Positions 2,984 to 63,435 of a stretch of DNA of 64,000 nucleotides are shown one piece after another. Source of the stretch: Rhizobiaceae bacterium (lineage in GTDB: Bacteria > Pseudomonadota > Alphaproteobacteria > Rhizobiales > Rhizobiaceae); contig DATMFK010000011.1 of NCBI GenBank assembly GCA_035556195.1, forward strand, positions 24,900-88,899. Direction: 5' to 3'. The notes below the pieces were generated by a model, which was not told where the DNA came from, did not search any database, and worked only from the letters and a program-made list of their open reading frames with translations. Each line of letters begins with the position of its first letter. Position 1 is the stretch's first letter. Position numbers and translations under genes: made by a program.

Positions 2984-3160
2984 CCCCTCATCCGACCTCG
3001 CTTCGCGAGGCCACCTTCTCCCCGTGGGGGAGAAGGAGAAGCTTGGCACCGACGGATCTGGAACGCGGCAAACGTTGGCGATTGGCGCAGACCTTCCCGC
3101 CACGCTCCCTCCTTCTCCCCCACGGGGAGAAGGTGGCCGCGAAGCGGACGGATGAGGGGG
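2984..3160. repeat. Family-A REP doublet (inverted pair)
   Basis: CCCCTCATCCGACCTCGCTTCGCGAGGCCACCTTCTCCCCGTGGGGGAGAAGG (2984-3036) and an inverted copy (3111-3160). Confidence 0.93.
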
Positions 3161-3171
3161 TGCCACGCCAG

Positions 3172-4089
3172 TCACTGCCCGCAGGTCACGCCCAGGCTCG
3201 CCCGATCAACCACCGTCGCCTCGACAAAGATCTCCTGCTTGCTCACCGGCTTGCCTTCCAGCACGTTGCCGATCTCGGCCACGGCCGCCCTCGCGATCCC
3301 TGGGAAATCCTGGCGCACGGTGGCGACGAGGTTGGTGCATTGCTTGATGAGCTCCACCGCCTGCGGGTTGCCGTCGATGCCGGCGATGATCATCTTGGCG
3401 TCGGGCGCGTCGCTCTGCTGGGCGAGCAACGCGCCGATGGCCGGCTCGTCCCAGGCCGCCCATACGCCGTTGATCTCGGCCCCGTGCTGGCGGATGAAGG
3501 TTTCCATGGCCAGCCGCGCATTGTCGATCGGGCCGGGCACCTGCACGTAATGCTCGGCGATCACCTTGATGTCGGGATGGGATTCCAGCGCCTTGTCCAG
3601 CGCGAGTTCGCGCTGGCGCACGCCGGGATGCGCCGAGTGGAAGAATTTTACGATGTTGCCCTTGTTGCCGAGCTGCTTGAACAAATAGTCGGAGAGGATT
3701 GTCCCCAGCGCGAAATTGTCGGTCGTGATGTTAGCGACGATGCCGGGCGCGATGGCGCCGTCGAGCGCGACGACGGGGATCTTCTTCTCCGCCGCCGCGG
3801 CCACCTGGTCGGCGATCTGGTTGGGGTCGACACTCACCAGCACGATCGCCTTCACGCCGGCATTGGTGACGTCCTCGACGCGGCTGGCGAGCTGCTGGAA
3901 GTCGCCGCGCGTGTCGACCACATTCACGGTCCAGCCCTTGGCCTCGGCGTCGGCCTTGAAGGTCTCGACCATCTCGTTGGTGGCGACCGAGCTGATGTAG
4001 GGCGTGAGCACGGCCACGTCCTCGGCCTGGGCCGTGCCGGCGAGCAGCAAAGCGGCGAGGCCGGCCAGCGTCGATAGAGTGCGTTTCAT
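3172..4089 (-). CDS. Sugar ABC transporter periplasmic substrate-binding protein
   Basis: Signal peptide MKRTLSTLAGLAALLLAGTAQA, RbsB-like motifs (ANITTDNF, IAGIDG, ATVRQDF), SD GGAGGAG upstream. Confidence 0.92.
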   Translation of the reverse strand: MKRTLSTLAGLAALLLAGTAQAEDVAVLTPYISSVATNEMVETFKADAEAKGWTVNVVDTRGDFQQLASRVEDVTNAGVKAIVLVSVDPNQIADQVAAAAEKKIPVVALDGAIAPGIVANITTDNFALGTILSDYLFKQLGNKGNIVKFFHSAHPGVRQRELALDKALESHPDIKVIAEHYVQVPGPIDNARLAMETFIRQHGAEINGVWAAWDEPAIGALLAQQSDAPDAKMIIAGIDGNPQAVELIKQCTNLVATVRQDFPGIARAAVAEIGNVLEGKPVSKQEIFVEATVVDRASLGVTCGQ

Positions 4090-4109
4090 TGTCGTTCTCC
4101 TCCGGAAGA

Positions 4110-5543
4110 TCATGTCAGGGAAGGCGCGATGTCGCGCGCGAATCGGGAAGCCTCGCAATAGGCGCGGTAGCGCCGCGCGGCGCGTTCGGTGTCTTGCGGC
4201 GCGGTTGTCTCGGCCTCGTGCTGCGGCTCGACCTGCGCGAAGCCGAGCTCGCCCGCCACCATGCGATAGATGCCGAGCGCCGGCACGTCGCGGCTTTCCG
4301 GCGGCACGCTCACGCCGCGGCCGAGCGTATCGGCGAGCAGCTGCCGCATGAGCCGGCTTCGTGCACCGCCGCCGATTGCCGTGAGGGGCGAGACCGGCAG
4401 GCCGGCATTTTCCAGATTGTGGCGCACGGCGAAGGCGATGCCTTCCAGCACGGAGCGGCAGAGCGCGGCCGGCCTGTGATTGCGGTCGAGGCCGAGAAAG
4501 GCGCCGCGCACCGCCTGGTCCTCGAAGGGCGAGCGCTCGCCGGCGAGATAGGGCAGGAAGAGCGGGCCGGATTTTTCCGCCTCGGCCGCTTGGAGCAGGG
4601 TCTCGACGGGAAGGGCGGCGATGTCGGCCAGCCAGTCGAGCGCCGAGCCGGCGGTGAGGAAGGGCGAGATCAGGATGGCGTGGTCGGGGCGGATCGGGTC
4701 GGCCAGCGTGTAGATGTCGCGCGGCGGGTCCGCTTCGTCGAGCGTGGTGGTGGCGGCCACCCAGCCCGTCGTGCCGAGATAGACATAGGCCGAGCCCGGC
4801 CGGTCGGCGAAGGCGCCCCAGGTGGCGGCCGCGCCGTCGCCCGCGCCGTTGAAGACGGGGATGCCGGGCTTCAGGCCGAGTGCTGCGGCGGGGGCTTCGA
4901 GCAGGCCGGCGACCACCGCATCGGCCGGGAGGATATTGGGCAGGCGCTCGAGCGAAACGCCGGCTGCGGCTGCGAGGCCGGCATCCCAGGCGCCGGTGCG
5001 GATATCGAAGAGGCCGGTGGTCGTGGCCGTGGTGGGGTCGATCACGCGCTGGCCGGTGAGTCTTTCGATCACCGCGTCCTTGGCGCCGAACAGGAAATGA
5101 GCATTTGCCGCTCCCGCCGGGTAGTAGTGGTCGAGCCGCATGAGCTTGAGGATCGGATGGGCGGCGTCGAGCCGGTTGCCGGTGCGCAGCCCGTAATCGT
5201 CGGGCAGCTCCCTGCCCAGCGCTTCCACGTCGGCCGCGTCGAGCCGCCGGTCGGAATAGAGCACGGCGGGACCGGCCGGGGTGCCGTCGTCGGAGAGGGC
5301 GATGAGGTTCTGCATCGAGCCGGAAAGCGCGATCGCCGCCACGTGCTCGCGCCGTGGCAGGGCGGCGGTGGCGGCGAGCGCCGCCTTCCACCAATCCTCG
5401 ACATTCTGCTCGGCCGAGCGGTCGGTCGCGGTCGCCGTCGGAACCGGACTCGACGCGGCCGCGACGACCGCGCCCGTGCGGGAAAACAGCACCGCCTTGA
5501 GCGCCGAGGAGCCGACGTCGAATATGAGCAGAAGATCGTCCAT
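4110..5543 (-). CDS. FGGY-family carbohydrate kinase (xylulokinase-like)
   Basis: FDVGSSALKAVL, GAGDGAAA, FLPYLAGERSP, AIGGGARS motifs. Confidence 0.9.
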   Translation of the reverse strand: MDDLLLIFDVGSSALKAVLFSRTGAVVAAASSPVPTATATDRSAEQNVEDWWKAALAATAALPRREHVAAIALSGSMQNLIALSDDGTPAGPAVLYSDRRLDAADVEALGRELPDDYGLRTGNRLDAAHPILKLMRLDHYYPAGAANAHFLFGAKDAVIERLTGQRVIDPTTATTTGLFDIRTGAWDAGLAAAAGVSLERLPNILPADAVVAGLLEAPAAALGLKPGIPVFNGAGDGAAATWGAFADRPGSAYVYLGTTGWVAATTTLDEADPPRDIYTLADPIRPDHAILISPFLTAGSALDWLADIAALPVETLLQAAEAEKSGPLFLPYLAGERSPFEDQAVRGAFLGLDRNHRPAALCRSVLEGIAFAVRHNLENAGLPVSPLTAIGGGARSRLMRQLLADTLGRGVSVPPESRDVPALGIYRMVAGELGFAQVEPQHEAETTAPQDTERAARRYRAYCEASRFARDIAPSLT

Positions 5544-5683
5544 TGCTCGCCAAACCTTTGGAATGCCGAATCCCGCAGGCGGGGCGGGATGTCAATCGGG
5601 GCGGGGCTGGGTGGGGAAAAATTGTCGGGCTTGGCGGGGTGGTGGTTCTGGGCGGTTGGGCGGCTGTCGGAGACGGAACGGAA

Positions 5684-5868
5684 TGGATACTCGGATCACC
5701 TCGCTTCGCTCGGGTCCGAGTATGACGAAGCTTCCATGGCGAATGCCAATCGTCGACGTCGCGTTGGGTCAGGCCTGCTGCGCACTCGCAAACGTTGGCG
5801 ATTAGCTGGGCACATAAACGCCGTCGTCATACTCGGACCCGAGCGAAGCGAGGTGATCCGAGTATCCA
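5684..5868. repeat. Family-B CGTC-tagged REP doublet, left of the GIY-YIG gene
   Basis: TGGATACTCGGATCACCTCGCTTCGCTCGGGTCCGAGTATGACG at 5684-5727 and its exact reverse complement at 5825-5868. Confidence 0.95.
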
Positions 5869-5942
5869 TTCCGTTCCCTCGAAACTGCCGCAACGCTGCA
5901 ATCACGGATTGCAAACCGGCATCCGGAATGTACCATCGCCCC

Positions 5943-6230
5943 ATGACCGGCTACGTCTACATGACCGCCAGCAGGAAGCGCGGCACGATCTATATCGGCG
6001 TCACCAACGACCTCGGCCGGCGCATGCCCGAGCACAAGACGGGCGAGGGGTCGCGCTTTACCAGCCGCTACGGCGTCCAGTGCCTCGTCTGGTACGAGGA
6101 GCACTTCGACATCCGCGACGCCATCCAGCGCGAGAAGACGCTGAAGCACTGGCCGCGGCAATGGAAGATCGAGCTGATCGAGAGTCTCAATCCGGAATGG
6201 TTCGAGCTGTTTCGTGGGACGGGGTGGTAG
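5943..6230 (+). CDS. Small stand-alone GIY-YIG nuclease (95 aa, YhbQ/UPF0213-like)
   Basis: MTGYVYMTASRKRGTIYIGVTNDLGRRMPEH...AIQREKTLKHWPRQWKIELIESLNPEW: GYVY and YIG motifs with conserved Arg, His and Glu. It is the C-terminal end of track ORF 4089..6230. Confidence 0.93.
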   Translation: MTGYVYMTASRKRGTIYIGVTNDLGRRMPEHKTGEGSRFTSRYGVQCLVWYEEHFDIRDAIQREKTLKHWPRQWKIELIESLNPEWFELFRGTGW

Positions 6231-6268
6231 TTCTGCACCGTCAGGCGCGCTGCCGCCAGGTAACGGAA

Positions 6269-6417
6269 TGGATACTCGGATCACCTCGCTTCGCTCGGGT
6301 CCGAGTATGACGAAGCTTCTATGGCGAATGCCAAACGTCAACGCCGGTGATTAGCCGAGCACATCAACGCAGTCGTCATACTCGGACCCGAGCGAAGCGA
6401 GGTGATCCGAGTATCCA
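6269..6417. repeat. Family-B CGTC-tagged REP doublet, right of the GIY-YIG gene
   Basis: Same 44-mer at 6269-6312 and its reverse complement at 6374-6417, identical to the left doublet copies. Confidence 0.95.
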
Positions 6418-6504
6418 TTCCGTTCCGTTGCGGCCGAACGCCCGACCTTGCAGAACTCGGCCCGTCTCCCGCTCACGTTCGTGTCGAGATAAAATCAAGA
6501 AAGT

Positions 6505-6638
6505 GAATCGTTCGGAATCATAAGGGCTTGTCAGCGAATCCAGTCTCTGATTCTTTGGCCTTGAGCGTTTCCTGATTTGAGTCGTTTGACGCGTTCGTTG
6601 CGGTCGGTGCCGTTAGGTGCCGGCGGGGACTTCGATTC
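6505..6638. promoter_or_regulatory. Cluster of six GANTC (CcrM methylation) sites upstream of ddl
   Basis: GAATC 6505, 6515, 6536; GATTC 6549, 6634; GAGTC 6579. Confidence 0.6.
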
Positions 6639-6687
6639 AACTTTCGGGAAGCTTGGAGAGGCGCCTGTCCGAGGGGATTGACGGGGT

Positions 6688-7614
6688 ATGAGTAAGAAGC
6701 ACGTGGCTGTTCTGATGGGGGGATTTTCCTCCGAACGGCCTGTGTCGCTTTCGTCGGGGGCGGCTTGCGCCGATGCGCTGGAAGCCGAGGGCTATCGCGT
6801 CACGCGCGTCGATGTCGGTCGCGATGTCGGGTCGGTGCTTGCCGCGCTCGGGCCGGATGTCGCCTTCAACGCCCTGCACGGGCCGTTCGGGGAGGACGGC
6901 ACGATCCAGGGCATCCTTGAATATCTGGAGATTCCCTACACTCATTCCGGCGTGCTCGCCTCGGCGCTCGCCATGAACAAGGAGCAGGCCAAGACGGTCG
7001 CCAAGGCGGCGGGCATTCCTGTCGCGCAATCGAAGGTGATCGATCGCTTCACCATCGTCGACAAGCATCCGATGAAACCGCCCTATGTGGTGAAGCCCGT
7101 CAGCGAGGGATCGAGCTTCGGCGTGGTCATCGTCAAGGAGGATCAGTCGCATCCGCCGCAGATCATCGCTTCGCCCGAATGGCGCTACGGCCCGCAGGTC
7201 ATGGTGGAGCGCTACATCCATGGCCGGGAGCTCACCTGCGCCGTGATGGGCGACGTGGCGCTGGGCGTCACCGAAATCATCCCGATGGGGCATTCCTTCT
7301 ACGATTACGACTCGAAATACGTCCCTGGGGGCTCAAAACACGAATGCCCCGCAAAAGTTTCACCGAATATTTACCAAAAAATACAGACACTGGCGCTCAA
7401 GGCGCACCAAGCGATCGGCTGCCGGGGCGTGTCCCGGTCGGACTTCCGCTACGACGACCGTCACTCCGAGGAGGGCGAGCTCATCTGGCTCGAAGTCAAT
7501 ACCCAGCCGGGGATGACGCCCACGTCGCTGGTGCCTGAGATTGCCGCCCAGGCGGGGCATACGTTCGGTGAATTGTTGAGTTGGATGGTGGAGGACGCTT
7601 CGTGTTTGCGTTGA
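6688..7614 (+). CDS. ddl: D-alanine--D-alanine ligase
   Basis: [38 protein letters not shown] motifs; directly upstream of ftsQ. Confidence 0.97.
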
Positions 7615-8525
7615 GGTCGGGACGGAATCGAAGGATTGCCGGCCTGCTCGGTTTTTCCTATTCCGACGAGGGGCTCGTGCTGCCGCGCCTGCTGCGCCGG
7701 CCGGCGCGCGTGCTTTCGCGCCTGACCAGCGGCGAGATCGTTCCGCCGCGCTATTCCGCCACGATCATGAGCGCCGCTTTCCTTGGCGTCACCGGCCTCT
7801 ACGGTTCCTATCTCGGCGGCCATATCCCGACCATCCTCCAGACGATCACGTCGCGCACCGGCTTCGCCGTCGACCAGGTGCGCGTGACCGGCCATCGCGA
7901 GACTTCGGAGATCGACATCCTCGACAAGCTCGAGCTCGATGGCTGGACGTCGCTGATCGGCTTCAACGCCGAGGCAGCCCGCGAGCGCGTGGCCAGCCTG
8001 CCCTGGGTCGAGATCGCTTCGGTGCGCAAGGTCTATCCCGACACGCTCGAAGTCCACATCGAGGAGCGCAAGCCCTTCGCCATCTGGCAGCAGGGTCGCG
8101 AGCTGTCGATCGTCGACGCCAAGGGCAGGGTGATCGCGCCCTTCAATGGCGGCCGCCATGCCGGCCTGCCGCTGGTCGTCGGCGTCGGCGCCGCGCAGGC
8201 CGCCGACGCCTTCGTGAAGAAGGTCAAGGGCTATCCGGAGCTCGCCGGCCGCGTGAAGGGCTATATCCGAGTCGCCGACCGGCGCTGGGATCTCTGGCTC
8301 GACAACGGCGTCACCGTCAAGCTGCCGGAGCAAGGCGAAGACCGGGCCATATCAGCACTGCTGGAGATGGATCGCGAGGAAGGGCTGCTCGCGCGCGACA
8401 TCAAGTCGGTCGACATGCGCTTCTCCGACCGGGTCGTCGTGCAGCTCACGCCGGATGCGGCGGAGCGCCGCGCGGAGATGCTGGCCGAAATGGCGAAGGC
8501 GCGCAAGGCGGGGAAGAGAATATGA
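7602..8525 (+). CDS. ftsQ: Cell division protein FtsQ
   Basis: Transmembrane segment plus POTRA-like region ([22 protein letters not shown]); GTG start at 7602 after GGAGGA; dcw position. Confidence 0.93.
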
Positions 8526-11549: not shown

Positions 11550-11565
11550 TCGCAGGGGCGAACGG

Positions 11566-11725
11566 CCCCTCACTGTCCTGCCGGACATCTCTCCCCGCAA
11601 GCGGGGAGAGAATTGCCGGCCGCTTGAATTTCGCCAATCGGCAACGCTGGCGATTGGCGAAGGCGCCGATGACAGCGGTCTTCTCCCCGCTTGCGGGGAG
11701 AAGGTGCCGGCAGGCGGATGAGGGG
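11566..11725. repeat. Family-A REP doublet with a central perfect 11-bp inverted repeat
   Basis: CCCCTCACTGTCCTGCCGGACATCTCTCCCC...GGGGAGAG (11566-11610); TTCGCCAATCG-N10-CGATTGGCGAA (11630-11661); inverted REP at 11680-11725. Confidence 0.92.
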
Positions 11726-11788
11726 CTTGCTCGGCCGTTAATCCTCTTCGGCGCTGTGACGATTCGGTTACATTGCCGCAACAAATTC

Positions 11789-15715: not shown

Positions 15716-15745
15716 TCGCGCGCACCTCAGCAGGTCGCGCTCCTA

Positions 15746-15921
15746 CCCCTCATCCGACCGAGCTTTGCTCGGCCACCTTCTCCCACAAGGGGAGAAGGGA
15801 AGACTGCGGGCACGCTGGTGCCAATCACCAACGTCTACGATTTGCAGTCGCCCCTCTGCCAAGCTCCCCCTTCTCCCCTTGTGGGAGAAGGTGGCCTCGC
15901 GAAGCGAGGTCGGATGAGGGG
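15746..15921. repeat. Family-A REP doublet between recN and ligA
   Basis: CCCCTCATCCGACCGAGCTTTGCTCGGCCACCTTCTCCC...GGAGAAGG (15746-15798) and an inverted copy (15869-15921). Confidence 0.92.
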
Positions 15922-16003
15922 TAGGCTGTGAAGCGCGCCGGACGAGGCCTTGTCAGCAACCTTCCGCCCGCCACTTGCAACTCGCCGCGCCCCACGGCCA
16001 TAG

Positions 16004-18187
<2,184 letters not shown>

Positions 18188-18252
18188 TCTCAAGGCCGAT
18201 TGTGACCGACTGTCTGTACCGCGTTCACGATCGGCAGCGTCATTTGCGACGT

Positions 18253-18469
18253 CGTCATCCCCGGGCCCGCAGGCGAGCGAAGCGAAGCCGAAGGTGACCT
18301 GGGGATCCATGCCGTGACGCTTCTGCCGGTTTCCGCGGGGTAGGATGAATTGCGAAGGGGCACGCGTTTCACGATGATGCCAAACCCGCCCGTCGGGCGT
18401 TCGGCCGCAACGGAACGGAATGGATTCTCGGGTCACCTCGCCCCTTGGGGCTCGGGCCCGAGAATGACG
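18253..18469. repeat. Family-B-related REP doublet with outward CGTC tags (MITE-like)
   Basis: CGTCATCCCCGGG...GAGCGAAGCGA...GGTGACCTGGGGATCCA (18253-18309) and TGGATTCTCGGGTCACCTCGC...CCCGAGAATGACG (18421-18469). Confidence 0.88.
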
Positions 18470-18567
18470 AGACTACTGTTTCGTCGATGATTTTCGATGA
18501 ACCGTGGCTCAAGCGAATTCATATGACAGGCGGGGCGGGCTGACCTAGATCCGCCTCTGGAGGATTC

Positions 18568-19284
18568 ATGGCTGCGCAGTCGACTCTGAGCGAATTCCTG
18601 TCCGGTGCTCGTTCCGGCGTGCCTGTGATGCTGGCCATCGTTCCATTCGGACTGCTGTTCGGCGCGCTGGCCGTCGACAACGGGTTCACCATTGCGGAAG
18701 CCATGCTCATGAGCGCCGCCGTCTATGGCGGCGCCAGCCAGATGGTGGGCATCGAGCTCTTCGGCCAGGAAGTGGCACCGTGGCTGATCGTGCTTTCCAT
18801 CTTCGCGGTCAATTTCCGCCACGTTCTCTATTCCGCCGCCTTCGGCCCGGTGATCCGAAACTGGCCTACGCTGCAGAAGGCCATCGCCTTCTTCTTCCTG
18901 AGCGACCCGCAATTCGCCGAGGCCGAGCGACGGCGGGACGGTGGCGGCAGGATCAGCTTCGCCTGGTACCTCGGCATGGCCGCGTTCTGGTGGGTCGCCT
19001 GGGTGGCAGAGACGGGGATCGGCGCCTATTTCGGCGGCCTCATCGCCGACAGCCATGCACTCGGCATCGATTTCCTGCTGCCGATCTATTTCCTCGGCCT
19101 CGTGATGAGCTTCCGCAAGCGCCCCTTGTGGCTGCCGGTGATCCTCGTGAGCGCGGTAGCCTCGATCATCGCCTACAAGATCGTCGGCTCGCCATGGCAT
19201 GTGTCGATCGGCGCCGTGGCGGGCGTCCTCCTGGCTGCGGCCATGCCGCCGCGCATCCAACAATCCGTGGAGAGAAATGCATGA
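18568..19284 (+). CDS. AzlC-family branched-chain amino acid exporter, large subunit
   Basis: YGGASQ, NFRHVLYS, FFLSDPQFA motifs; multiple transmembrane segments. Confidence 0.9.
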   Translation: MAAQSTLSEFLSGARSGVPVMLAIVPFGLLFGALAVDNGFTIAEAMLMSAAVYGGASQMVGIELFGQEVAPWLIVLSIFAVNFRHVLYSAAFGPVIRNWPTLQKAIAFFFLSDPQFAEAERRRDGGGRISFAWYLGMAAFWWVAWVAETGIGAYFGGLIADSHALGIDFLLPIYFLGLVMSFRKRPLWLPVILVSAVASIIAYKIVGSPWHVSIGAVAGVLLAAAMPPRIQQSVERNA

Positions 19285-19580
19285 GCACGACGGTCTGGAT
19301 CATCCTGGCGGGCGCGTTGATGACATATCTCACGCGCGTCGGCGGCCATCTCGTGCTGTCGCGCTTCGACAGGGTGCATCCGCGGGTGGAGGCCGGTCTC
19401 AACGCGGTTCCGGCGGCGGTGCTCACGACGCTCGTCGCACCGGCCGCGATTTCCGGCGGCCCCGCCGAGATCATCTCTCTCGTTGCCGCCGCCGTGGTCG
19501 CTCTCGTCTGGGGCGGTATGATGCCGATGTTCCTGACCGGCGCCGCCGTTCTCATTGCGCTCCGCCATTTCATCGGCTGA
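19281..19580 (+). CDS. AzlD-family small subunit
   Basis: MSTTVWIILAGALMTYLTRVGG...VPAAVLTTLVAP; ATGA overlap with azlC. Confidence 0.88.
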   Translation: MSTTVWIILAGALMTYLTRVGGHLVLSRFDRVHPRVEAGLNAVPAAVLTTLVAPAAISGGPAEIISLVAAAVVALVWGGMMPMFLTGAAVLIALRHFIG

Positions 19581-19624
19581 GCCGCTTCCCCATGCAGTTT
19601 TCGCGCCCGCACGCTGGATAGATC

Positions 19625-20368
19625 ATGACCGCTGAAGCAATCTTCCCGAGATCGGGCACGAGCCAGTTCCTGCGCGGGGCGCGGCTCGGCATGCCCGTGG
19701 TGATAGCCTCCGCGCCCTTCGCTATTCTCTTCGGCGCGCTCGCCGTCGACAACGGCATGTCCGTCATGGAGACGACGCTGATGAGCGCGACCATCTTTGC
19801 CGGCGCGAGCCAGATGGTTGGCCTCGAGCTCTTCGGCCACGATATCCCGCCATGGCTTGTCGTGTTCTCGATCTTCGCCGTCAATTTCCGGCACGTGCTC
19901 TATTCGGCCGCGGTCGGTCGACGCGTCGGGCATTGGACCTTCTTGCAAAAGACGGTCGGCTTCTTTTTCCTCGTCGATCCGCAATACGCCGAAACGGAGC
20001 GCAAGGCGGAGAGAGGCGAGAGCATCGGTTTCGGCTGGTATATGGGCATGGCGCTGACGATGTATCTGTTCTGGGTCGCCACATCTGCGCTGGGGGCGAT
20101 CTTCGGCAAGCTCTTGCCCGACACCCACGCGCTGGGCATCGATTTCCTCCTGCCGATCTATTTCCTCGGGCTCGTCATGGGTTTCCGCAAGCGGCCGCTC
20201 TGGCTGCCGATTGTCGTGGCGAGCGCCGTGGTCTCCGTCGTCGCCTTCAAATTCGTTGGCTCGCCCTGGCATGTGTCGATCGGTGCCGCCGCCGGCATTG
20301 TCCTCGCCGCGGCCATGCCGCCCCGCGGTAAAGTGGATCTTGGCGAGGGGTTGGAGGCGGAGGTTTGA
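19625..20368 (+). CDS. Second AzlC-family protein (paralog)
   Basis: FAGASQ, NFRHVLYS; shares HALGIDFLLPIYFLGLVMxFRKRPLWLP with the first copy. Confidence 0.9.
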   Translation: MTAEAIFPRSGTSQFLRGARLGMPVVIASAPFAILFGALAVDNGMSVMETTLMSATIFAGASQMVGLELFGHDIPPWLVVFSIFAVNFRHVLYSAAVGRRVGHWTFLQKTVGFFFLVDPQYAETERKAERGESIGFGWYMGMALTMYLFWVATSALGAIFGKLLPDTHALGIDFLLPIYFLGLVMGFRKRPLWLPIVVASAVVSVVAFKFVGSPWHVSIGAAAGIVLAAAMPPRGKVDLGEGLEAEV

Positions 20369-57733: not shown

Positions 57734-57773
57734 TGCAGTCTCATCTTGTTCGGGAGGAACCAGGACCCGCGGT

Positions 57774-59081
57774 TCACGCGAGGCCTGCGACTTCCGCCAG
57801 GGTGTCGTCGATCGCGGCCAGAATGTTGGCGGCATCCTCCTCCGTCATCGGCGTGGAGAGGGCGAACAATCCATAGCTGGCGGCAAGGATGCCGCGCTTG
57901 AGGCAGCCTTTGTGGAAAACGTCGAGCATCTTGCGCTCCCTGGATCCGGGATACACCGAACGATAGTCGGCCACCGGATTGGACGTGAAATGGACCTTGA
58001 AGAGCGAGCCGAGACCCACGCAGGTGCCGGGCACACCGTGCCTTTCCATTGCCGCATTGATGCCGGCGCGCAGGAAGTCGCCGATCTTGTCCAGATGCGC
58101 GAAGCTCTCTGCGGTCAGCGCCTTCATCGACGCAAGGCCGGCGAGCATCGTGACGGGATTTGCAGTGAAGGTGCCTCCATGGGGGAGGGCAGGCTTGCCC
58201 CTGCTGGGGTCGAACACCGCCATGACGTCCGCTCGACCGGCGATGGCGCCGACCGGGAAACCTCCGCCGATGATCTTTCCCAGGACCGTCAGATCGGGCC
58301 TGACTTTCCACAGACCCTGGGCGCCCTCATAGCCGAGCCGGAAGGAGATCACCTCGTCGAAGATGACGAGCGCGCCGGCGCCGTGAACGATCTCGAACGC
58401 CGCCTTGAGATAGTCGCGGTTCGCGGGGATGAGCCCTGCGCGGTTCGGCATCGGATCGATCAGGATCGCGGCGATTTCGTCTCCATGCGCCTTGAAGACC
58501 GCCTGCAGCGCCTCGGCATCGTTGAAGGGCACGACCAGGACGTCGTCGAGGACTCCCTTTGGCGTGCCCTTGGCATAGGGTGTCGAGACGGGCATGTCGC
58601 CCCAATTGGCTGGCGAGCTGTCGAGGCTGACCTCCGAATAGTCGTAGGAACCATGGTAGGCGCCTTCGATCTTCACGATCTTGGGGCGACCCGTGAAGGC
58701 GCGCGCAGCCTTGATCGCCATCATGACGCCTTCTGTGCCCGAATTGGCGAAACGGATCTGCTCGACGGACGGCAGGCGTTGGACCAGCAGCTCCGCCAGC
58801 TCGATCTCGCTTACGGTCGGCGCTCCGAAAGCGCTGCCGAGTGGCAATTGCGCGGTCACCGCCGCGGTGACGGCCGGATGATTGTAGCCGTGGATCATCG
58901 CCGTGAAATTGTTGATGCAGTCGTAGTAGACATTGCCGTCGACATCCCACATGCGACAGCCGTCGCCTCTTTCCGCGTAGATGGGATGAGGCTCCATGTA
59001 GACCGTGGTGCGCGTGTTTCCGCCGGGCAGGACGAGTTTTGCGCGTTCGTAGAGGGCCGCGGATCTGGTGTAATTGGGCAT
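57774..59081 (-). CDS. Class-III PLP aminotransferase (not HemL)
   Basis: LPGGNTR, RFANSGTE, GAYHG, FDEVI, LGKIIGGG, HGGTF. Confidence 0.9.
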   Translation of the reverse strand: MPNYTRSAALYERAKLVLPGGNTRTTVYMEPHPIYAERGDGCRMWDVDGNVYYDCINNFTAMIHGYNHPAVTAAVTAQLPLGSAFGAPTVSEIELAELLVQRLPSVEQIRFANSGTEGVMMAIKAARAFTGRPKIVKIEGAYHGSYDYSEVSLDSSPANWGDMPVSTPYAKGTPKGVLDDVLVVPFNDAEALQAVFKAHGDEIAAILIDPMPNRAGLIPANRDYLKAAFEIVHGAGALVIFDEVISFRLGYEGAQGLWKVRPDLTVLGKIIGGGFPVGAIAGRADVMAVFDPSRGKPALPHGGTFTANPVTMLAGLASMKALTAESFAHLDKIGDFLRAGINAAMERHGVPGTCVGLGSLFKVHFTSNPVADYRSVYPGSRERKMLDVFHKGCLKRGILAASYGLFALSTPMTEEDAANILAAIDDTLAEVAGLA

Positions 59082-59172
59082 GAAAGGGCTCTGTCGCCTG
59101 AGGCGGGACACATTCGGGGAAGGGGGGCGTTCAAGCCAAGGCCGCGCATGGCGGCCTTGGCGGGCAGGCTGA

Positions 59173-60714
59173 CTATTTCGTCATGATGGTGTGGCTCTGC
59201 TCGCGCATGAACTGCGGCAGGAAGTAGACGCCGAGGCCGCCCTTGCCGCTCACGCCGGTACCTTTCCAGCCGCAGAAGGGCTGCGCGCCGGGCCATGCAC
59301 CGGTGGTGGCGCCGCTGGCGCGGTTTGCATAGAGGACGCCGGCCTCGGCATGGTCGAGGAAGTAGCGCAGCTCCGCGTCGTCTTTCGTGAAGACGCCGGC
59401 GGCCAAGCCATAGGCAATGTCATTGCCTTCCTTGAGCGCCTCTTGCAGGTTGTCGACGCCACGCAGCACCACGAAGGGCATGAACAATTCTTCCTTGGTC
59501 AGGCGCGACGGTCCGGGCATCTCCACGAGAGCGCCCTGGAAATAGTTCTCTCCCAAGGCTTCGAGGCGCGTTCCGCCATAATGCACCGTGCCCTCCGCGG
59601 CGGCTTGGGCCATCGCCTCGGTGAACCGGGCCACCGTTGCAGCGTTGTAGAGCGGCCCCATGAAGGTCTCGGCCTTGCGCGGATCGCCGACAACGAGCTT
59701 CGAGGCGAAGTCCTTGAAGTGACGGATGAACTCTTCCTTCACGGCGTTGTCGACATAGACCACCGAGCAGGCCGAGCATTTTTGACCTTGAAGGCCGAAG
59801 GCCGACCGCGCCACGCCCTGAGCCGCACGTTCGACATCGGCGTTCCTCGTGACGTAAGCGGGGTTCTTGCCCCCCATCTCGGCCACCACGGGCTTCATAT
59901 GGGGCAGGGTGGCCATGTGGCGGAAAATGCCCATGCCGGTGTTGTGCGAACCGGTGAATGCCACGCCGTCTATGCCTTCGTCGGTCGCGAGCAGACGGCC
60001 GACTTCGCCGTCGCCCAGCACGATGTTGAACACGCCGTCCGGCAGGCCAGCCTTCTTCAGCGTTTCGGCGATGAGAAGGCCGGTGAGGGGGCATTCCGGG
60101 GAGGGCTTGTAGACCACGGTATTGCCGGTGATCAGCGCACCGGTGATCATTCCGATCGAAAGGGCGACCGGGAAATTGAAAGGCGCAATGACGGCAAAGA
60201 CACCGTAGGGCTTCAGGACGCTGACAGCGGTCTCGTTCTCGATCAGCTCGTTCATCTGGCGCCGGTATCCGCCGTTGCGACGCAACTCGCCGGGATAGAA
60301 GTCCAGCATGTCGACGGCCTCTTCGGCTTCACCGACGCCTTCGAGGCGGGACTTGCCGACCTCGTAGAGCGCGGCGAGGCCGAGCGTGTACTTCTCTTCG
60401 CTGAGAACCTTCTTCCAACGCTCGGCGAAAGCCAGCCGGTCTTCAAGGGATGCGAAATTCCAGCTTTTGGCGGCTTTGCGGGCCGTGGCGATCGCCGCCT
60501 TCACATCGGCTGCATTGGAACGGGGGAACTTGCCGAGGGAAATGTCAGGGCTGATCGGGCTCGCGATGCTGACCGCTGCCTCCGAAGCGAACGGGGTGCT
60601 CCAGGTTTTCGTCAGTGTCCCGGCTTCAAACTGCGGAATAAGCGTATCGATATGAGCGTGCACCGGCCCGAAATCGACGCCGATATTCGAATAGGTAACT
60701 CGCGGTAAGGTCAT
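59173..60714 (-). CDS. Aldehyde dehydrogenase (P5C dehydrogenase-like)
   Basis: APFNFP, FTGS, AEMGGKN, GQKCSACS, EELFMP. Confidence 0.92.
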   Translation of the reverse strand: MTLPRVTYSNIGVDFGPVHAHIDTLIPQFEAGTLTKTWSTPFASEAAVSIASPISPDISLGKFPRSNAADVKAAIATARKAAKSWNFASLEDRLAFAERWKKVLSEEKYTLGLAALYEVGKSRLEGVGEAEEAVDMLDFYPGELRRNGGYRRQMNELIENETAVSVLKPYGVFAVIAPFNFPVALSIGMITGALITGNTVVYKPSPECPLTGLLIAETLKKAGLPDGVFNIVLGDGEVGRLLATDEGIDGVAFTGSHNTGMGIFRHMATLPHMKPVVAEMGGKNPAYVTRNADVERAAQGVARSAFGLQGQKCSACSVVYVDNAVKEEFIRHFKDFASKLVVGDPRKAETFMGPLYNAATVARFTEAMAQAAAEGTVHYGGTRLEALGENYFQGALVEMPGPSRLTKEELFMPFVVLRGVDNLQEALKEGNDIAYGLAAGVFTKDDAELRYFLDHAEAGVLYANRASGATTGAWPGAQPFCGWKGTGVSGKGGLGVYFLPQFMREQSHTIMTK

Positions 60715-60728
60715 GATCAAAACTCGTC

Positions 60729-60758
60729 CCGATAATCGATATTAATCTCTATAATCGG
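60729..60758. promoter_or_regulatory. Candidate IclR operator near a sigma70-like promoter of the catabolic operon
   Basis: CCGATAAT-N14-ATAATCGG imperfect inverted repeat in an AT-rich patch; minus-strand TTGACT at 60778-60773. Confidence 0.5.
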
Positions 60759-60882
60759 CACAAATTTTGTCGAGTCAATGAGATTTTGGTGCCGGACGGC
60801 GGGACCTTGGGGAAGCTGCTTCTGAACGCACAAAGGCCCCGCGCTTGGCGCGAGGCCTCGACAATCGGTCGGCGAGTATCGT

Positions 60883-61662
60883 CTAGTCGGCCTTGTCGGT
60901 CAGCTTCAGCAGCCTTGTCAGCCGTGCCGCCGTCTGCGAGAGCGCCTCGCGATTCCTGTCGAAGTATTCCTCCGCTATTCCACGATGAGGGCCTGTAAGA
61001 CCAAGGGCATAGGTGATCCTGCCACCTGGTTTTCCGATCGGAAAAGCGATGGTGCTCAGCCCCGCGACGTGTTCCTCCAGTTCCGTTGCGTAACCTCGTG
61101 CGCGGGTGACGCGCATCTCAGCCAGGAGTTCATCGCGGTCGGTTTTCGTATTGGACGTGAACTGCGGCAAATCGCCGGTCAGGATGCGCCGTGCTTCCTC
61201 TTCGTCCTGATATGCCAGCAGCACCTTCGCGGTTGCCGTGGCGTTGAGCGGCATGATCGTGCCTGGCGCGATATAGATGCGAACAAGCGTATCGGGCGCG
61301 GTGCAGGTGACGGAGCGCACCTCGTCACCGGCAAGTTTCGAAATGAACGCCGATTGTCCGGTCTCAGCGGCAAGCAGTTCCAGTGGCCGCCGGGCCAGCG
61401 GCTCGATCCATTCCGTGTTCGACGAGCTGTGCACCAGCTGGAGGATTCGATCGCCCAATTTGTACGTGCGATTGCGGGCATTGCTTGCCGTGATCAGGCC
61501 GCCGTCGAGCAAGGCGTGGAGCAGGCGGTTCACCGTAGCTTTGGGCAAGTCCAGCGCGACCTCGATTTCAGCAGCGGTCAGCCCCTGGGAGAAGGGGGCG
61601 ATCATCTCCAGGATCGAGATGTACCGTTCCAAAGGGCTGTCTTTTGGAGATTGATTGAGCAT
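60883..61662 (-). CDS. IclR-family transcriptional regulator
   Basis: HTH LPKATVNRLLHAL; ATATAKVLLAY, RARGYA, LGLTGP. Confidence 0.92.
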   Translation of the reverse strand: MLNQSPKDSPLERYISILEMIAPFSQGLTAAEIEVALDLPKATVNRLLHALLDGGLITASNARNRTYKLGDRILQLVHSSSNTEWIEPLARRPLELLAAETGQSAFISKLAGDEVRSVTCTAPDTLVRIYIAPGTIMPLNATATAKVLLAYQDEEEARRILTGDLPQFTSNTKTDRDELLAEMRVTRARGYATELEEHVAGLSTIAFPIGKPGGRITYALGLTGPHRGIAEEYFDRNREALSQTAARLTRLLKLTDKAD

Positions 61663-62003
61663 GTCTTCTTTCGTGATTCGTGCCTGCCGACAGACCAAGG
61701 CTTGGACGACTGCCGTTGGCGAGACATGATCAAATTGACCGCGCAGCGCAAGCCGCTACCACGTTTCGACCGGGCCGGGAGCTGTCGATTGCCACGGCGT
61801 TTTGCCTTTCCGGTCTCACGGTTCTCGCGGCATCTCACAGCTCTGAGTTGCCGAACGCCGCCACGATCCGAGTGCGAACGCGTAGCGCGTCGGTATTGCC
61901 GCATGCGGTCGTGTCGGTCGGTCAGGGGATACAGGGCCGCTGACGCATGTCGCCGAACGATGTACAGCGGCTTCGGGTAAATGGCATCTGAAACAACAGT
62001 TTA

Positions 62004-62041
62004 AAGCCTGCCGTGCAAATCTCGATTTGCGCGGCAGGCTT
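62004..62041. other. Long intergenic hairpin (18-bp stem)
   Basis: AAGCCTGCCGTGCAAATC-TC-GATTTGCGCGGCAGGCTT, one mismatch (G-U in RNA). Confidence 0.75.
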
Positions 62042-62057
62042 AAGAGGGCGGGGAGCG

Positions 62058-62528
62058 TCATCGGGCCACGGTGTGCCGATCGTCGGTGTTCGACAAGAGG
62101 TTCAGTTCGGAACGAAGACGATCCGGGTCGGGGAGTGCCGCCTCAATCTCAGCGTGAACACGCCGCCAGATCGGCAGAGCTTCGATGAGAAGCGATCGAC
62201 CGGTTCGTGTCAGGCGTAGCCGCTTGGCGCGTCTGTCCTGCGGGTCGGCTGCCGACTCCACAAGCCCCCGACGCTCTAGCGGCTTGAGGTTGGCCGTGAG
62301 CGTCGTCCTGTCCATCGCCAACGTTGCTGCCACGCTGCCGAGGCTCGGCGGCTCCGGGCGATTGAGCGACATCAGGAGGGAGAACTGCCCACTGGTGATG
62401 CCGACGGACTTGAGCGCGACGTCGAAGCGGCGTGCAAGGGCGCGCGCCGCCTGCTGCGCATGCAGGCACAGGCAGGCATATCGCACATGAAGCGTCGTCT
62501 GGAAGGTAAGGTCGGCAGGCTGGTCCAT
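62058..62528 (-). CDS. MarR-family regulator
   Basis: CLCLHAQQAARALARRF, MDRTTLTANLKPLERRGLV, DRR. Confidence 0.93.
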   Translation of the reverse strand: MDQPADLTFQTTLHVRYACLCLHAQQAARALARRFDVALKSVGITSGQFSLLMSLNRPEPPSLGSVAATLAMDRTTLTANLKPLERRGLVESAADPQDRRAKRLRLTRTGRSLLIEALPIWRRVHAEIEAALPDPDRLRSELNLLSNTDDRHTVAR

Positions 62529-62557
62529 TTGAAGGTTGACATCCGTAGGGAATTTAC

Positions 62558-62569
62558 GTTGATATCAAC
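62558..62569. promoter_or_regulatory. Candidate MarR operator
   Basis: Perfect palindrome GTTGATATCAAC just upstream of marR. Confidence 0.6.
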
Positions 62570-62737
62570 CTAATTGGGGCGCGTCAACGTGGAGGACATG
62601 GTGCCGAATCATCCGTCGACCGGCAGCGCTCCGGTGCCTGACCATCGTTCCGGATCCGCGCTGCAATGATGAAAGCTGCGCCGAAGATTCATCGCGGCGC
62701 TTATCGCCAACCGTAGACCGACGAAGAGGAAGAGAGC

Positions 62738-63184
62738 ATGAAGATTGTGACCAGCCTGAGCTTCCAGGGCCAGTGCCGCGAAGCGTTCGAATTCTACGCC
62801 CGGGTGCTGGGCGGGAAGATCACCGCAGCGATGCCCTACAGCGATGCGCCGCCGGACATGCCCGTCAGCGATGAAAAGTACAAGAATTGGCTCATGCACT
62901 GCTGGCTCGAGGTCGGCGACCAGGCGCTGATGGGAGCCGATATGGACGTCGGATGGGCGCCCAACATCGACAAGCCCAAGAACGGCTTCGACGTTACCCT
63001 GCACACCGAAGACATGGCGGAGGGCCAACGCTGGTTCGACCAGTTGTCAGAGGGGGGGAGGGCGGTCATGCCGTTCGGCGAGACCTTTTTTTCGCCCGGC
63101 TTCGGCTCCCTGATAGACAAGTTCGGCGTGCCGTGGATGATCAACGTCATGCCGTCCGCCGAGTGGCGCGCACAGCACGGCTGA
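62738..63184 (+). CDS. VOC/PhnB-like protein
   Basis: LSFQGQCREAFEFY, LMHCWL, MPFGETFFSPGFGSLIDKFGVPWMIN. Confidence 0.9.
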   Translation: MKIVTSLSFQGQCREAFEFYARVLGGKITAAMPYSDAPPDMPVSDEKYKNWLMHCWLEVGDQALMGADMDVGWAPNIDKPKNGFDVTLHTEDMAEGQRWFDQLSEGGRAVMPFGETFFSPGFGSLIDKFGVPWMINVMPSAEWRAQHG

Positions 63185-63278
63185 TCCTTGAGGCTATCTG
63201 CTTCTCGCGATGGTGGGAACGGCGTGGTCGATTGCCGCGGCACTGCGAAGCCCGCCGGTCCTTGACGGTCGCGAGGGG

Positions 63279-63435
63279 CCCCTCACCGTACGGACATCTA
63301 TCCCCGCGAGGGGGGAGAGAGAGCATGGCCGAATGGCTTTCGCCAATCCGAGAACGTTGGTGATCGGGGAAAGTGGAGATGGCATCGGTCTTCTCCCCGC
63401 CCGCGGGGAGAAGGTGCCGGCAGGCTGATGAGGGG
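63279..63435. repeat. Family-A REP doublet
   Basis: CCCCTCACCGTACGGACATCTATCCCC...GGGGAGAG (63279-63320); core at 63338-63372; inverted REP at 63390-63435. Confidence 0.9.

Follow-up and report, generated by a model that had tools for sequence, protein, structure and literature searches.

A conserved core motif in the spacers of inverted REP dimers of several arm families in Mesorhizobium and its relatives

Repeat elements and the nuclease gene in the window

The window, a 64,000-nucleotide stretch of DNA from a Mesorhizobium-like soil bacterium of the Rhizobiaceae, carries seven dimeric repeat elements, five of family A and two of family B, which all have at their dyad centre the same motif, GCCAATC-NC-CAACGYTGG-N-GATTGGC (referred to below as the core). 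Each element consists of an outer arm with an inner hairpin, 17-23 nt of spacer, the core, a further 17-23 nt and the inverted counterparts of the hairpin and outer arm, with a total length of 150-210 bp. Family A comprises two A1 elements, two A3 elements and a tandem array at 922-1460, in which four units of 117 bp, each a left arm with a degenerate centre, span 922-1390 and are followed by a single right arm (1391-1454). The A1 element at 2975-3165 separates the substrate-binding protein gene of a sugar ABC transporter operon from the ATPase gene, and the one at 15742-15925 starts 27 nt past the recN stop codon. The A3 element at 11562-11730, whose left arm is A2-like and right arm A1-like, starts 13 nt past the stop codon of ftsZ; the other A3 element is found at 63276-63438.

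The family B elements, at 5672-5880 and 6258-6430, are head-to-head dimers of hairpins with the structure CGTC-ATACTCGGA-19 nt-TCCGAGTAT-CCA. They are located on both sides of a gene for a 95-aa single-domain GIY-YIG nuclease (5943-6230, plus strand), a homolog of SsnA, an arrangement that corresponds to the NTS-ssnA-NTS architecture of the Ssn system (PMC11893778). A solo hairpin of the family B arm type, with no adjoining core, is present on the minus strand at 18405-18470.

Identity of the arm families

Both repeat families belong to kinds already known. In their CGTC tag, their CCA tail and a 9-bp stem that begins with AT, the family B arms agree with the CGTC-tagged REPs (Di Nocera et al. 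2013, PMC3733652). These REPs, which likewise form head-to-head dimers with a conserved spacer, correspond to the Ssn-related motifs (NTS, dRS3) that belong to the Ssn nuclease system (Chenal et al. 2025, PMC11893778). Judged by these sequence features, family B arms are CGTC-tagged REPs, that is, hairpins of the kind recognised by the Ssn single-strand nuclease family, and have in this sense already been described (PMC3733652, PMC11893778). They differ in the loop, which is 19 nt long here and 25-30 nt in Mesorhizobium, compared with 4-5 nt in the described motifs.

The right arms of family A show 94-100% identity over ~50 nt to repeats of Sinorhizobium meliloti and Rhizobium, the most repeated of which are present in at least 40 copies per replicon. 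We take the family A arms to be the RIME-like repeats of Rhizobiaceae, as a candidate name. RIME reportedly stands for Rhizobium-specific intergenic mosaic elements, a term said to go back to Osteras et al. in 1995. Like RIME, Sm-repeats and the AB/C palindromes of S. meliloti, family A elements are intergenic and mosaic and consist of two large palindromes. A lead to this name comes from PMC2573895.

The core and its copies in the window

With up to 3 mismatches, the 26-mer core has 5 matches in the window versus 0.00 in 100 shuffles. The shorter AACGYYGGYGATT, with at most 1 mismatch, has 7 matches versus 0.83 expected; six of these are at element centres and the seventh (62313-62325) is within a coding region. 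The conserved stretch spans ~22-26 bp, and its best-kept part is CAACGYTGG-N-GATTGGC(GAAA), the mirror half GCCAATC being weaker.

The recurrence of the core in doublet spacers, as reported in the first-pass annotation, was borne out at 11630-11661 in an A3 element, where perfect 11-bp arms (TTCGCCAATCG/CGATTGGCGAA) flank GCAACGCTGG in a fully symmetric copy (the 26-mer proper being 11633-11658), at 15820-15845 in an A1 element (GCCAATCACCAACGTCTACGATTTGC), and at 6330-6355 in the second family B element (GCCAAACGTCAACGCCGGTGATTAGC), where the core is 17-18 nt from either CGTC tag. The site given as 63338-63372 also contains the motif, at 63341-63367, in a form (GCCAATCCGAGAACGTTGGTGATCGGG) that has one additional base and whose right half has degenerated to GATCGGG. 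The half-sites noted at 1377-1388 (GTGATTGGCGAA) are the right half of a degenerate core, a remnant at 1360-1388 (GGCAATTTGGGGCGGTCGTGATTGGCGAA) in the last unit of the tandem array. In the A1 element at 2975-3165, the core (3061-3086) is asymmetric, with the middle and right half intact (CAAACGTTGGCGATTGGC) and the left half degenerate. The identity of GCAAACGTTGGCGATT between the two families is real, its copies being at 3068-3083 (family A) and 5789-5804 (family B), the latter one position off the reported 5788-5803. A true hairpin is present in some copies of the core only; several, such as those at 3061-3086 and 1360-1388, have kept one half-site and the middle.

The core of the first family B element (5746-5807), correctly described as split around 5745-5803, is a canonical core with an interruption: a left part at 5746-5755 (GCCAATCGTC) and a right part at 5792-5807 (AACGTTGGCGATTAGC) are separated by a 36-bp insertion (5756-5791). 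On a related metagenome contig, the positions corresponding to 5755 and 5792 are joined, giving the uninterrupted GCCAATCGTCAACGTTGGCGATTAGC. Another locus, L038, similarly has a ~95-nt insertion between a degenerate and an intact core. Such insertions, together with the independent assortment of core and arms and the 10-mers GGAGATTGGC and GCCAATCTCC that the inner ends of the A2 arms share with the core halves, could suggest that the core is a footprint or minimal mobile module, i.e., a pair of short terminal repeats abutting each other and belonging to an element whose targets are the centres of palindromic repeats, or a hot spot of insertion and excision. However, no longer, transposase-bearing version was found, nor any same-lineage "empty" dimers missing precisely the core, and the arm spacing is constant, all of which makes such an origin quite improbable.

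Distribution across genomes

A scan of 185,579 genomes (596 Gb) for exact matches to CCAATCNNCAACGNNGGNGATTRG returned 61 loci, 59 of them in Mesorhizobium and related Phyllobacteriaceae and Rhizobiaceae (Mesorhizobium, Kumtagia, Aminobacter, Aliihoeflea, Chelativorans, Pseudaminobacter, Aquamicrobium, Phyllobacterium and related MAGs). The remaining two matches, outside this clade, compare with ~9 chance matches calculated for all 596 Gb. The motif search proposed in the first-pass annotation, whether the core occurs alone or only between REPs, gave a clear answer: none of the 68 core-like blocks is armless. This count includes 12 blocks from loci fetched by arm pattern rather than by core, and two blocks (L027 and L048) that were flagged by the script as armless but on inspection have degenerate B arms.

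In at least eight genera, arms of at least five families (A1, A2, A3, B and a Chelativorans type) carry the core, with the distance between core and inner hairpin fixed at 17-23 nt. The earlier observation that it is common to different repeat families holds well beyond the window. In the scan, A2 arms were found 16 times, A1 arms ~12 times, A3 arms 3 times and the Chelativorans type twice; family B elements had both arms in ~15 cases and one arm in ~14. The arms of different families are unrelated to each other, whereas the core is common to them at ~85-100% identity. No A/B hybrid elements were found in the scan, the two sides of a core always being of the same arm family. Position 9 of the core is often T or G in A2 and is C in A1 and B; core variants thus partly track the arm family, which fits descent within families.

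The core is absent from the family B dimers of Hoeflea, Nitratireductor, Sinorhizobium and Shinella, the CGTC dimers of Neisseria are also coreless, and the S. meliloti family A copy examined, unlike those in the window, has a spacer of ~23 nt and no core. Given these coreless elements in other genera, neither A nor B arms need the core.

Conservation of sequence versus hairpin

The first-pass annotation regarded the core as a hairpin. An apical hairpin of this kind, tipping a longer hairpin or cruciform, could nucleate the extrusion or single-stranded DNA folding needed for mobility or processing. The core does lie exactly on the dyad axis, its GC content is lower than that of the arms, 30 of the 73 strong blocks have enough symmetry for a match on both strands, and the copy with perfect 11-bp arms folds as an apical stem-loop (minimum free energy -71.7 kcal/mol, z = -11.7). 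Against this, positions 8 and 19 form a Watson-Crick pair in only 10 of 59 cores, versus 22.4 expected under independence, and a conserved mismatch, T8/C19 (G8/A19 on the other strand), is found in 37 of the 59; the cores show no compensatory changes. One-sided transitions produce wobble pairs on different strands at different positions of the same element, and the predicted fold of the second family B element has no apical hairpin at the core.

A sample of 44 A2 dimers from metagenomes, selected by their arms and compared over the same 66-nt centre, points in the same direction. Both half-sites are present in none of them; a single half-site, with or without the middle, remains in 28, the middle only in 7, and nothing in 9. 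Their oriented consensus is ..CTTCTGCAACGTTGGAGATTGGCGAAAG.., in which conservation of the half GATTGGCGAAA clearly exceeds that of the flanking positions. With no compensation, a mismatch that is kept and no A2 dimer with both half-sites, the conserved feature of the core is its sequence and not a stem-loop, and the apical hairpin is an unlikely explanation.

The pattern of substitutions also bears on the notion that the repeats are transcribed within 3' untranslated regions and that the core serves as an RNA processing or binding site. Of the five family A elements in the window, four either lie between the cistrons of an operon or have their start no more than about 30 nt from a stop codon, and REPs are often co-transcribed (PMC3733652). 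Yet neither strand keeps wobble-compatible changes, both orientations of the core occur (among only six cases, its polarity relative to the flanking genes is the same in 2 and opposite in 4), and matches to Rfam were limited to spurious microRNA hairpins. An RNA-level role is accordingly barely credible.

Relationship to the Ssn nuclease

Core-bearing family B elements flank the nuclease gene at four loci, in the window, Aminobacter (L063), M. delmotii (L011) and Aliihoeflea (L007), and cleavage mapping with the purified GIY-YIG protein was among the checks suggested in the first-pass annotation. Ssn genes accompanied by B arms but not by the core are, however, found in Hoeflea, Nitratireductor, Chelativorans, Sinorhizobium, Shinella and Neisseria. 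As these six genera show, the nuclease goes with the family B arms rather than with the core. Conversely, family A elements have the core but neither a CGTC hairpin nor an associated nuclease gene. In Neisseria, SsnA has the CGTC hairpin itself as its recognition site, with cleavage in a non-conserved flank, and its minimal substrate of 37 nt is too short to include the core (PMC11893778). The core is therefore not the target of the neighbouring GIY-YIG nuclease, and its being a cleavage or homing site of that enzyme retains very little probability, even though two cores have insertions or duplications and both predicted Ssn cuts of a B dimer bracket the core (PMC11893778).

By analogy with the Neisseria SsnA, the adjacent enzyme would bind the CGTC hairpin on single-stranded DNA and cut ~3 nt 5' of the tag. 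As the tags of a family B dimer face the core, each strand would be cut ~14-15 nt outside it, which would leave the core on a ~60-nt 3' overhang. The sequence TGCAATCACGGATTGCA at 5897-5913, just upstream of the nuclease gene, is present as reported but is not conserved upstream of orthologous nuclease genes and is thus treated as unrelated to the core. Of the proposal that a common target, cargo or protein-binding site unites the two families, what stands is that the core is a real shared module; a link between the core and the nuclease is not supported.

Comparison with other dimeric repeats

A description of the core was not found in the searchable literature, including the two papers on CGTC-tagged REPs and the Ssn system (PMC3733652, PMC11893778). 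In organization, the closest parallels include BIME-1/RIP (RIB) of E. coli, in which two inverted REPs (Y and Z1) surround the IHF-binding L motif. Both systems have two inverted palindromic units around a conserved non-REP spacer motif, are intergenic, often directly 3' of genes or between cistrons, and arrange a few modules in mosaics and tandem arrays. The arms described here are far longer than those of BIME-1/RIP, measuring 45-85 nt and each including a hairpin, and have no relationship to E. coli REPs; in addition, one central motif is common to several arm families. The core is also not an IHF site, as it agrees with the IHF consensus WATCAANNNNTTR at 5-6 of 9 positions, no better than background. 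The other sites against which it was compared gave no match, and GANTC is absent.

With REPIN/RAYT, the elements share dispersed multicopy inverted REP doublets and a single-copy nuclease gene between the same REPs, but the nuclease here is a GIY-YIG (Ssn) enzyme rather than an HUH tyrosine transposase, and the GTAG tag is absent. To our knowledge, no motif shared across families has been reported for REPIN spacers. The long Correia elements (NEMIS) of Neisseria are likewise intergenic inverted-repeat elements, 100-155 bp in length, with an internal protein-binding (IHF) motif, and coexist with short versions that lack the motif (PMC2229807). They differ in having transposon-like terminal repeats and TA target duplications, in contrast to the REP hairpin arms and lack of any observed target duplication here.

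Possible role of the core

Direct analysis shows how the elements are built and distributed, which kinds of repeat their arms are, that the core lacks covariation and that Ssn and the core are separable. On these grounds, we tentatively favor the view that the core, as a conserved module in the middle of the spacer of inverted REP dimers, is a putative sequence-specific protein site on DNA. There is precedent for protein sites within the spacers of REP dimers or MITEs (PMC3184786, PMC2229807), as well as for conserved spacers of head-to-head REP dimers (PMC3733652).

A less probable but still serious reading is that the core is a functionless neutral passenger, a piece of spacer that descends from a few master copies and reached other arm families through recombination or template switching during dimer formation. 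The elements are indeed mosaic and recombining, as seen from the tandem arrays of left arms and the A3 hybrids of A1-like and A2-like arms; there are one-armed copies and duplicated or interrupted cores; and the core decays in the arm-selected A2 dimers. Its conservation could stem not from selection on a site but from master elements having been copied recently and from exchange between families, and both the partial tracking of arm family by core variants and the dispensability of the core for A and B arms elsewhere count against a protein site. On the other hand, ~20 nt remain recognisable over all these genera and arm families while the spacers on either side diverge, the position of the core and the arm spacing are fixed, and the conservation of the GATTGGCGAAA half stands out in a sample of A2 dimers that is unbiased with respect to the core.

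If the core is a protein-recognition module, the protein that binds it could be either a host architectural or regulatory factor or part of the machinery that forms or maintains the dimers. Such a module would ride in the spacer of the REP dimers much as the IHF-binding L motif does in E. coli BIME-1/RIP or the IHF site in the long Correia elements.

Palindromic Elements and Their Shared Core

The window comes from the chromosome of a soil-metagenome Rhizobiales bacterium and carries the ddl-ftsQ-ftsA-ftsZ-lpxC-recN cluster together with a sugar ABC transporter operon. Seven long palindromic elements lie in its intergenic regions, five with RIME-like arms (family A; an array at 922-1460 and single elements at 2975-3165, 11562-11730, 15742-15925, and 63276-63438) and two with CGTC-tagged REP arms (family B; element 1 at 5672-5880 and element 2 at 6258-6430), as well as a solo family B hairpin at 18405-18470. 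All the elements follow a common plan, in which an outer arm and an inner hairpin lead into a spacer and then into the mirror image, and in single-stranded form they are predicted to fold into one long hairpin (z = -11.7 and -16.5).

At the dyad centers of both families, the first-pass annotation had pointed out a ~26-bp core with the half-sites GCCAATC and GATTGGC. All the core sites it cited are present, with only minor corrections, and the observation is real and far above chance: the 26-mer at up to 3 mismatches gives five matches in the window versus none in shuffled sequences. The right part of the core, AACGYYGGYGATT, has seven matches versus 0.83 expected; six of these lie at element dyad centers and the seventh, within a coding region, is a chance match. 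The TGCAATC-ACG-GATTGCA palindrome noted upstream of the nuclease gene (see below) and the short core-like 9-mers that precede orthologous genes occur at a background rate of ~1% per position and at inconsistent distances, and they are treated here as chance. The core of B element 1, described earlier as split, turned out to be a canonical one broken by 36 bp, as a related metagenome contig joins position 5755 to 5792, restoring GCCAATCGTCAACGTTGGCGATTAGC. This insertion (5756-5791, GACGTCGCGTTGGGTCAGGCCTGCTGCGCACTCGCA), which is missing from the related rhizosphere-metagenome contig, where the joint shares 4 nt, was the sole usable polymorphism when metagenome contigs were aligned on positions 5000-7200 to seek empty sites; the joints were mostly other repeat copies. 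An inserted or duplicated core is seen again in an Aminobacter metagenome-assembled genome (MAG), where a family B dimer (locus L038, 905-1196) holds a degenerate core, GCTAATCTCCAAGGTCGCTGCTTGGC, and an intact one, separated by ~95 nt of unrelated sequence.

The family A elements occupy the usual sites of REPs, such as 13 nt past the ftsZ stop codon (11562-11730) and 27 nt past the recN stop codon (15742-15925). In the sugar ABC transporter operon, the element at 2975-3165 takes up the space that separates the gene for the substrate-binding protein from that for the ATPase, the classical place of mRNA-stabilizing REPs in Escherichia coli transporter operons, and creates long spurious open reading frames at 1390-3123 (minus strand) and 2810-3550 (plus strand). 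The array at 922-1460, located at the 3' end of the sugar ABC ATPase gene, consists of four head-to-tail 117-bp units, 82 to 96% alike, each pairing a left arm of family A with a degenerate center, with one right arm ending the array; it resembles an amplification of the BIME-2 type. A long minus-strand open reading frame (15953-18436) has the solo CGTC-tagged hairpin at its 5' end. Two nearby stretches of ~257 nt (18588-18845 and 18999-19254) are repeated 1072 nt downstream with ~75% identity, and the regions 18588-19254 and 19660-20326 look like a tandem pair of paralogous genes.

Family B Arms and the Ssn Nuclease

The CGTC-tagged REPs are characterized by a terminal CGTC, an 8- to 9-bp stem starting with AT, a CCA tail, and a predominance of head-to-head dimers with conserved spacers (PMC3733652). 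The family B arms have the layout (T)CGTC-ATACTCGGA-loop-TCCGAGTAT-CCA: an unpaired CGTC tag stands at the hairpin end (all four arms and the solo copy read (T)CGTC-AT...), the 8- to 9-bp stem begins with AT and is followed by an unpaired CCA tail, and the tags of each dimer face each other across the core. A loop of 4 to 5 nt was not found in these arms; it measures 19 nt in the window and ~25 to 30 nt in Mesorhizobium, versus the canonical 5 nt, CGTCATCCTCGGGCTTGACCCGAGGAT, in the relatives from Nitratireductor, Sinorhizobium, and Shinella, so the family B arms of the window represent an expanded-loop variant of the CGTC-tagged REP.

In the 2013 description, such repeats "apparently lack a dedicated transposase" (PMC3733652). 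In 2025, hairpins of this kind were shown to be the recognition motif (named NTS in Neisseria, CGTCATTCCCGCGMAVGCGGGAATCYRG) of SsnA, a 94-aa single-domain GIY-YIG nuclease that binds the hairpin on single-stranded DNA only and cuts a few nucleotides upstream, and whose gene typically has the motif on either side (PMC11893778). The gene at 5943-6230 (plus strand) codes for a 95-aa single-domain GIY-YIG protein (Pfam PF01541 over residues 3-75, E = 1.3e-14) that is 49% identical over 95% of its length (E = 1e-18) to a Neisseria gonorrhoeae protein whose reading frame is flanked by CGTCATTCCCGCG..GCGGGAATC, the published NTS; from these flanks and the published account (PMC11893778), we infer that the latter is ssnA. 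The window protein is also 51 to 60% identical to Sinorhizobium meliloti and Shinella proteins encoded between copies of CGTCATCCTCGGGCTTGACCCGAGGAT. Family B arms adjoin the gene in all nine closer homologues examined (those from the window, two Mesorhizobium, Aminobacter, Aliihoeflea, Hoeflea, Chelativorans, Nitratireductor, and a Rhizobiaceae MAG), on both sides in most of them and only downstream in Chelativorans, and CGTC hairpins also adjoin it in S. meliloti, Shinella, and N. gonorrhoeae. Given the homology to Ssn and the family B arms beside the gene in 9 of 9 cases, the GIY-YIG part of the earlier picture is a known system.

In the window, the Ssn-family gene sits between two complete head-to-head dimers (5672-6430), an NTS-ssnA-NTS-like architecture whose four arms are 98% alike and show, in the source metagenomes, a contig word depth 15 to 45 times that of the flanks. 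In Mesorhizobium delmotii (L011, 6225-6830), an ssnA homologue whose product is 92% identical to the window protein is found in the order core, right arm, gene, left arm, degenerate core, with the outer arms absent; elsewhere in the same genome (L033), the left flank, the core, and a truncated arm are repeated without the gene. Family B pairs with the "inside-out" arrangement seen around ssnA (right arm, 40 to 130 nt, left arm) but with the gene absent occur at L008 (3294-3514), L029 (4244-4513), and L042 (6131-6349) and are probably cassettes that have lost the gene; a 31-codon ssnA remnant adjoins a core in L042 (3053-3145).

Family A Arms and Other Repeat Classes

The right arms of family A are 94 to 100% identical over ~50 nt to sequences highly repeated in Sinorhizobium, Rhizobium, and Shinella replicons, with matches at 2043 places in 320 replicons of these and related genera. 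A two-hairpin copy on S. meliloti pSymB has the form of a repeated Rhizobiaceae intergenic element of two large palindromes, and these arms presumably belong to the RIME or Sm-repeat class that was masked by the S. meliloti annotators (PMC2573895). No small gene in an ssnA-like arrangement was found between family A arms; right-left pairs 1 to 2 kb apart enclose ordinary host genes. In S. meliloti Ak57 (CP090106.1; L072, 18549-20016), an ISRm16-family IS4 transposase gene (18586-19749) lies between family A hairpin signatures (18549 and 19872-20016), which suggests an insertion sequence inserted into a family A repeat. The replicons CP090106.1 (3.7 Mb, labeled as a plasmid) and Shinella NZ_CP069303.1 (4.6 Mb) are evidently chromosomes.

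Both arm families and the nuclease are thus of known kinds, and no description of the shared central module was found in the literature searched. As an IHF site (consensus WATCAANNNNTTR; BIME-1/RIP or Correia type), the core reaches at best 5 to 6 of the 9 specified positions, the median of random 50-mers from the window. The CcrM-associated CIR repeats were rejected, since GANTC is found in none of the seven core-bearing elements (the sole GANTC among the window repeats, at 18423, is in the solo hairpin), as were the REPIN/RAYT systems (GTAG-tagged REPs with an HUH tyrosine transposase), since family B arms are tagged with CGTC, family A arms have no tag, and the flanked gene codes for a GIY-YIG nuclease. 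Rfam 15 gave no match at gathering thresholds and only weak microRNA hairpin models at permissive ones.

Distribution of the Core

A scan for CCAATCNNCAACGNNGGNGATTRG, a pattern that required both halves, in one genome per species (185,579 species) returned 61 loci, with ~9 chance matches expected over the whole collection by our own calculation. All but two (Leptolyngbya and Victivallales, both without arms) fall in one clade, comprising Mesorhizobium (~40 loci), Kumtagia, Aminobacter, Aliihoeflea, Chelativorans, Pseudaminobacter, Aquamicrobium, Phyllobacterium, and Rhizobiaceae or Hyphomicrobiales MAGs. In these 59 clade matches the core always adjoins repeat arms, which are of type A2 (signature CCCCCCTCTGTCCTGCCGGACATCTCCCCC...) in 16 matches, CGTC-tagged family B hairpins on both sides in ~15 and on a single side in ~14, type A1 (CCCCTCATCCG...CCTTCTCCC...) in ~12, the A3 hybrid with an A2-like left and an A1-like right arm in 3, and a Chelativorans variant (...GGGGGAGAAAG...) in 2. 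Where both arms are there, they belong to the same family; none of the 59 cores is flanked by an A arm and a B arm.

The motif search proposed earlier, asking whether the core occurs alone or only between REPs, gave a clear answer: a looser search of all the fetched DNA yielded 68 usable core-like blocks, 12 of them from loci fetched by an arm pattern rather than by the core, and not one lacked an arm (L027 and L048, flagged by the script as armless, have degenerate B arms on inspection). In PLSDB, BLAST matches to the 41-nt core region were nearly all due to chance, the single real one being a Shinella element; a Rhizobium etli match was dropped because it had no arms. The family B element had no BLAST match in PLSDB, its stems being too diverged for BLAST, although CGTC hairpins do occur there. 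A core that is itself the footprint of an insertion or a mini-element, as the interrupted and duplicated copies might suggest, is quite improbable and ranks third among the alternatives considered.

The arms are found without the core. The one S. meliloti family A copy examined has two hairpins separated by a ~23-nt spacer and no core, and the family B dimers beside ssnA in Hoeflea, Nitratireductor, Chelativorans, Sinorhizobium, and Shinella have spacers that lack it. In Chelativorans the core is present within that genus's own A-like repeats, and beside ssnA it was seen only in the window, Aminobacter (L063), M. delmotii (L011), and Aliihoeflea (L007). The core is therefore separable from both arm types, and the nuclease goes with the arms rather than with the core. 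In B dimers the CGTC tags face the core at 17 to 18 nt; an enzyme with the cleavage position known from Neisseria, 3 nt on the 5' side of the tag (PMC11893778), would cut each strand ~14 to 15 nt outside the core. A core that is the target of Ssn, the fourth-ranked alternative, is very unlikely.

Sequence or Hairpin

The first-pass annotation regarded the core as a hairpin. In the 59 scan matches, at the positions left free by the search pattern, no compensatory changes were found. Core pair 8/19 is Watson-Crick in 10 of the 59 versus 22.4 expected under independence, its commonest state being a T8/C19 mismatch (37 of 59; G8/A19 on the other strand), and one-sided transitions would produce G-T wobbles on different strands, the top one at position 9 and the bottom one at positions 15, 16, and 24, often in the same element.

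An unbiased view was obtained from 120 metagenome loci fetched by the A2 arm pattern, which included 44 complete dimers with the same geometry and a 66-nt center. Both half-sites were present in none of these, one half-site (with or without the middle) in 28, the middle alone in 7, and nothing of the core in 9. With the better half set on the right, the consensus reads ..CTTCTGCAACGTTGGAGATTGGCGAAAG.., with information content peaking in GATTGGC, and the weaker half, CTCATTCTG, is still similar to GCCAATCTC. The conserved object is accordingly an asymmetric ~22-nt block whose mirror half is decaying. The perfect hairpin at 11630-11661 stands at one end of a range, and the genome scan, by requiring both halves, picked a symmetric minority. 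Arm-conditioned samples of family B (5 elements) and A1 (1 element) from the metagenome loci were too small for such an analysis. A core that serves as the structural apex of the folded element, second in rank among the alternatives, is improbable.

Strand calls based on GC3 left six usable cases, too few for a test of polarity, in which asymmetric cores are oriented 2 versus 4 relative to the flanking genes, and only two metatranscriptome runs hold 7 to 10% of the window words. An RNA signal, the last of the alternatives, is very improbable.

Possible Roles of the Core

The conservation of sequence across unrelated arms and several genera, the fixed spacing, the confinement to dimer centers, and the lack of structural covariation favor, tentatively and at somewhat less than even confidence, a putative sequence-specific recognition module that acts at the DNA level and is carried in the dimer spacer. 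Its closest analogues both bind IHF: one is the L motif of BIME-1/RIP, the other a site within long Correia elements (PMC3184786, PMC2229807). The first-ranked alternative, a neutral passenger carried by recombination from one to another of these highly mosaic elements, fits the A3 hybrids and is a possibility of some weight, if not a likely one; its practical value would lie in annotation, as the 150- to 210-bp elements yield spurious open reading frames and false small-RNA predictions in rhizobial genomes. The inner ends of A2 arms, GGAGATTGGC and GCCAATCTCC, are 10-mers identical to both core halves (e.g., L034, 4455-4610), so that a single A2 element holds four GATTGGC/GCCAATC half-sites ~17 and 12 nt apart; together with the duplicated or interrupted cores, these shared 10-mers hint at the origin of the core, which is best filed as a variant on the mosaic REP-dimer theme.

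Beyond recognition as such, the core could serve in cis as the site at which a single machinery forms or preserves inverted REP dimers of any arm type, a rather unlikely proposal. An Ssn-type cut might leave a 3' single strand able, at the core, to fold back on itself or anneal to another copy, and synthesis primed in this way would convert a lone REP into a symmetric dimer; alternatively, a dedicated DNA-binding protein might bring both arms together at the core. If so, one mechanism would join the orphan RIME-like family to the Ssn-associated CGTC-tagged REPs, and the matching arms on both sides of the core would be explained. Alphaproteobacteria abound in REP dimers and in the recently described Ssn nucleases, and a motif common to Ssn-associated repeats and an unrelated RIME-like family offers a short double-stranded probe (GCCAATCTCCAACGTTGGCGATTGGCGAAAG) for pull-down, EMSA, and ChIP experiments in Mesorhizobium, as well as a marker of exchange among repeat families.
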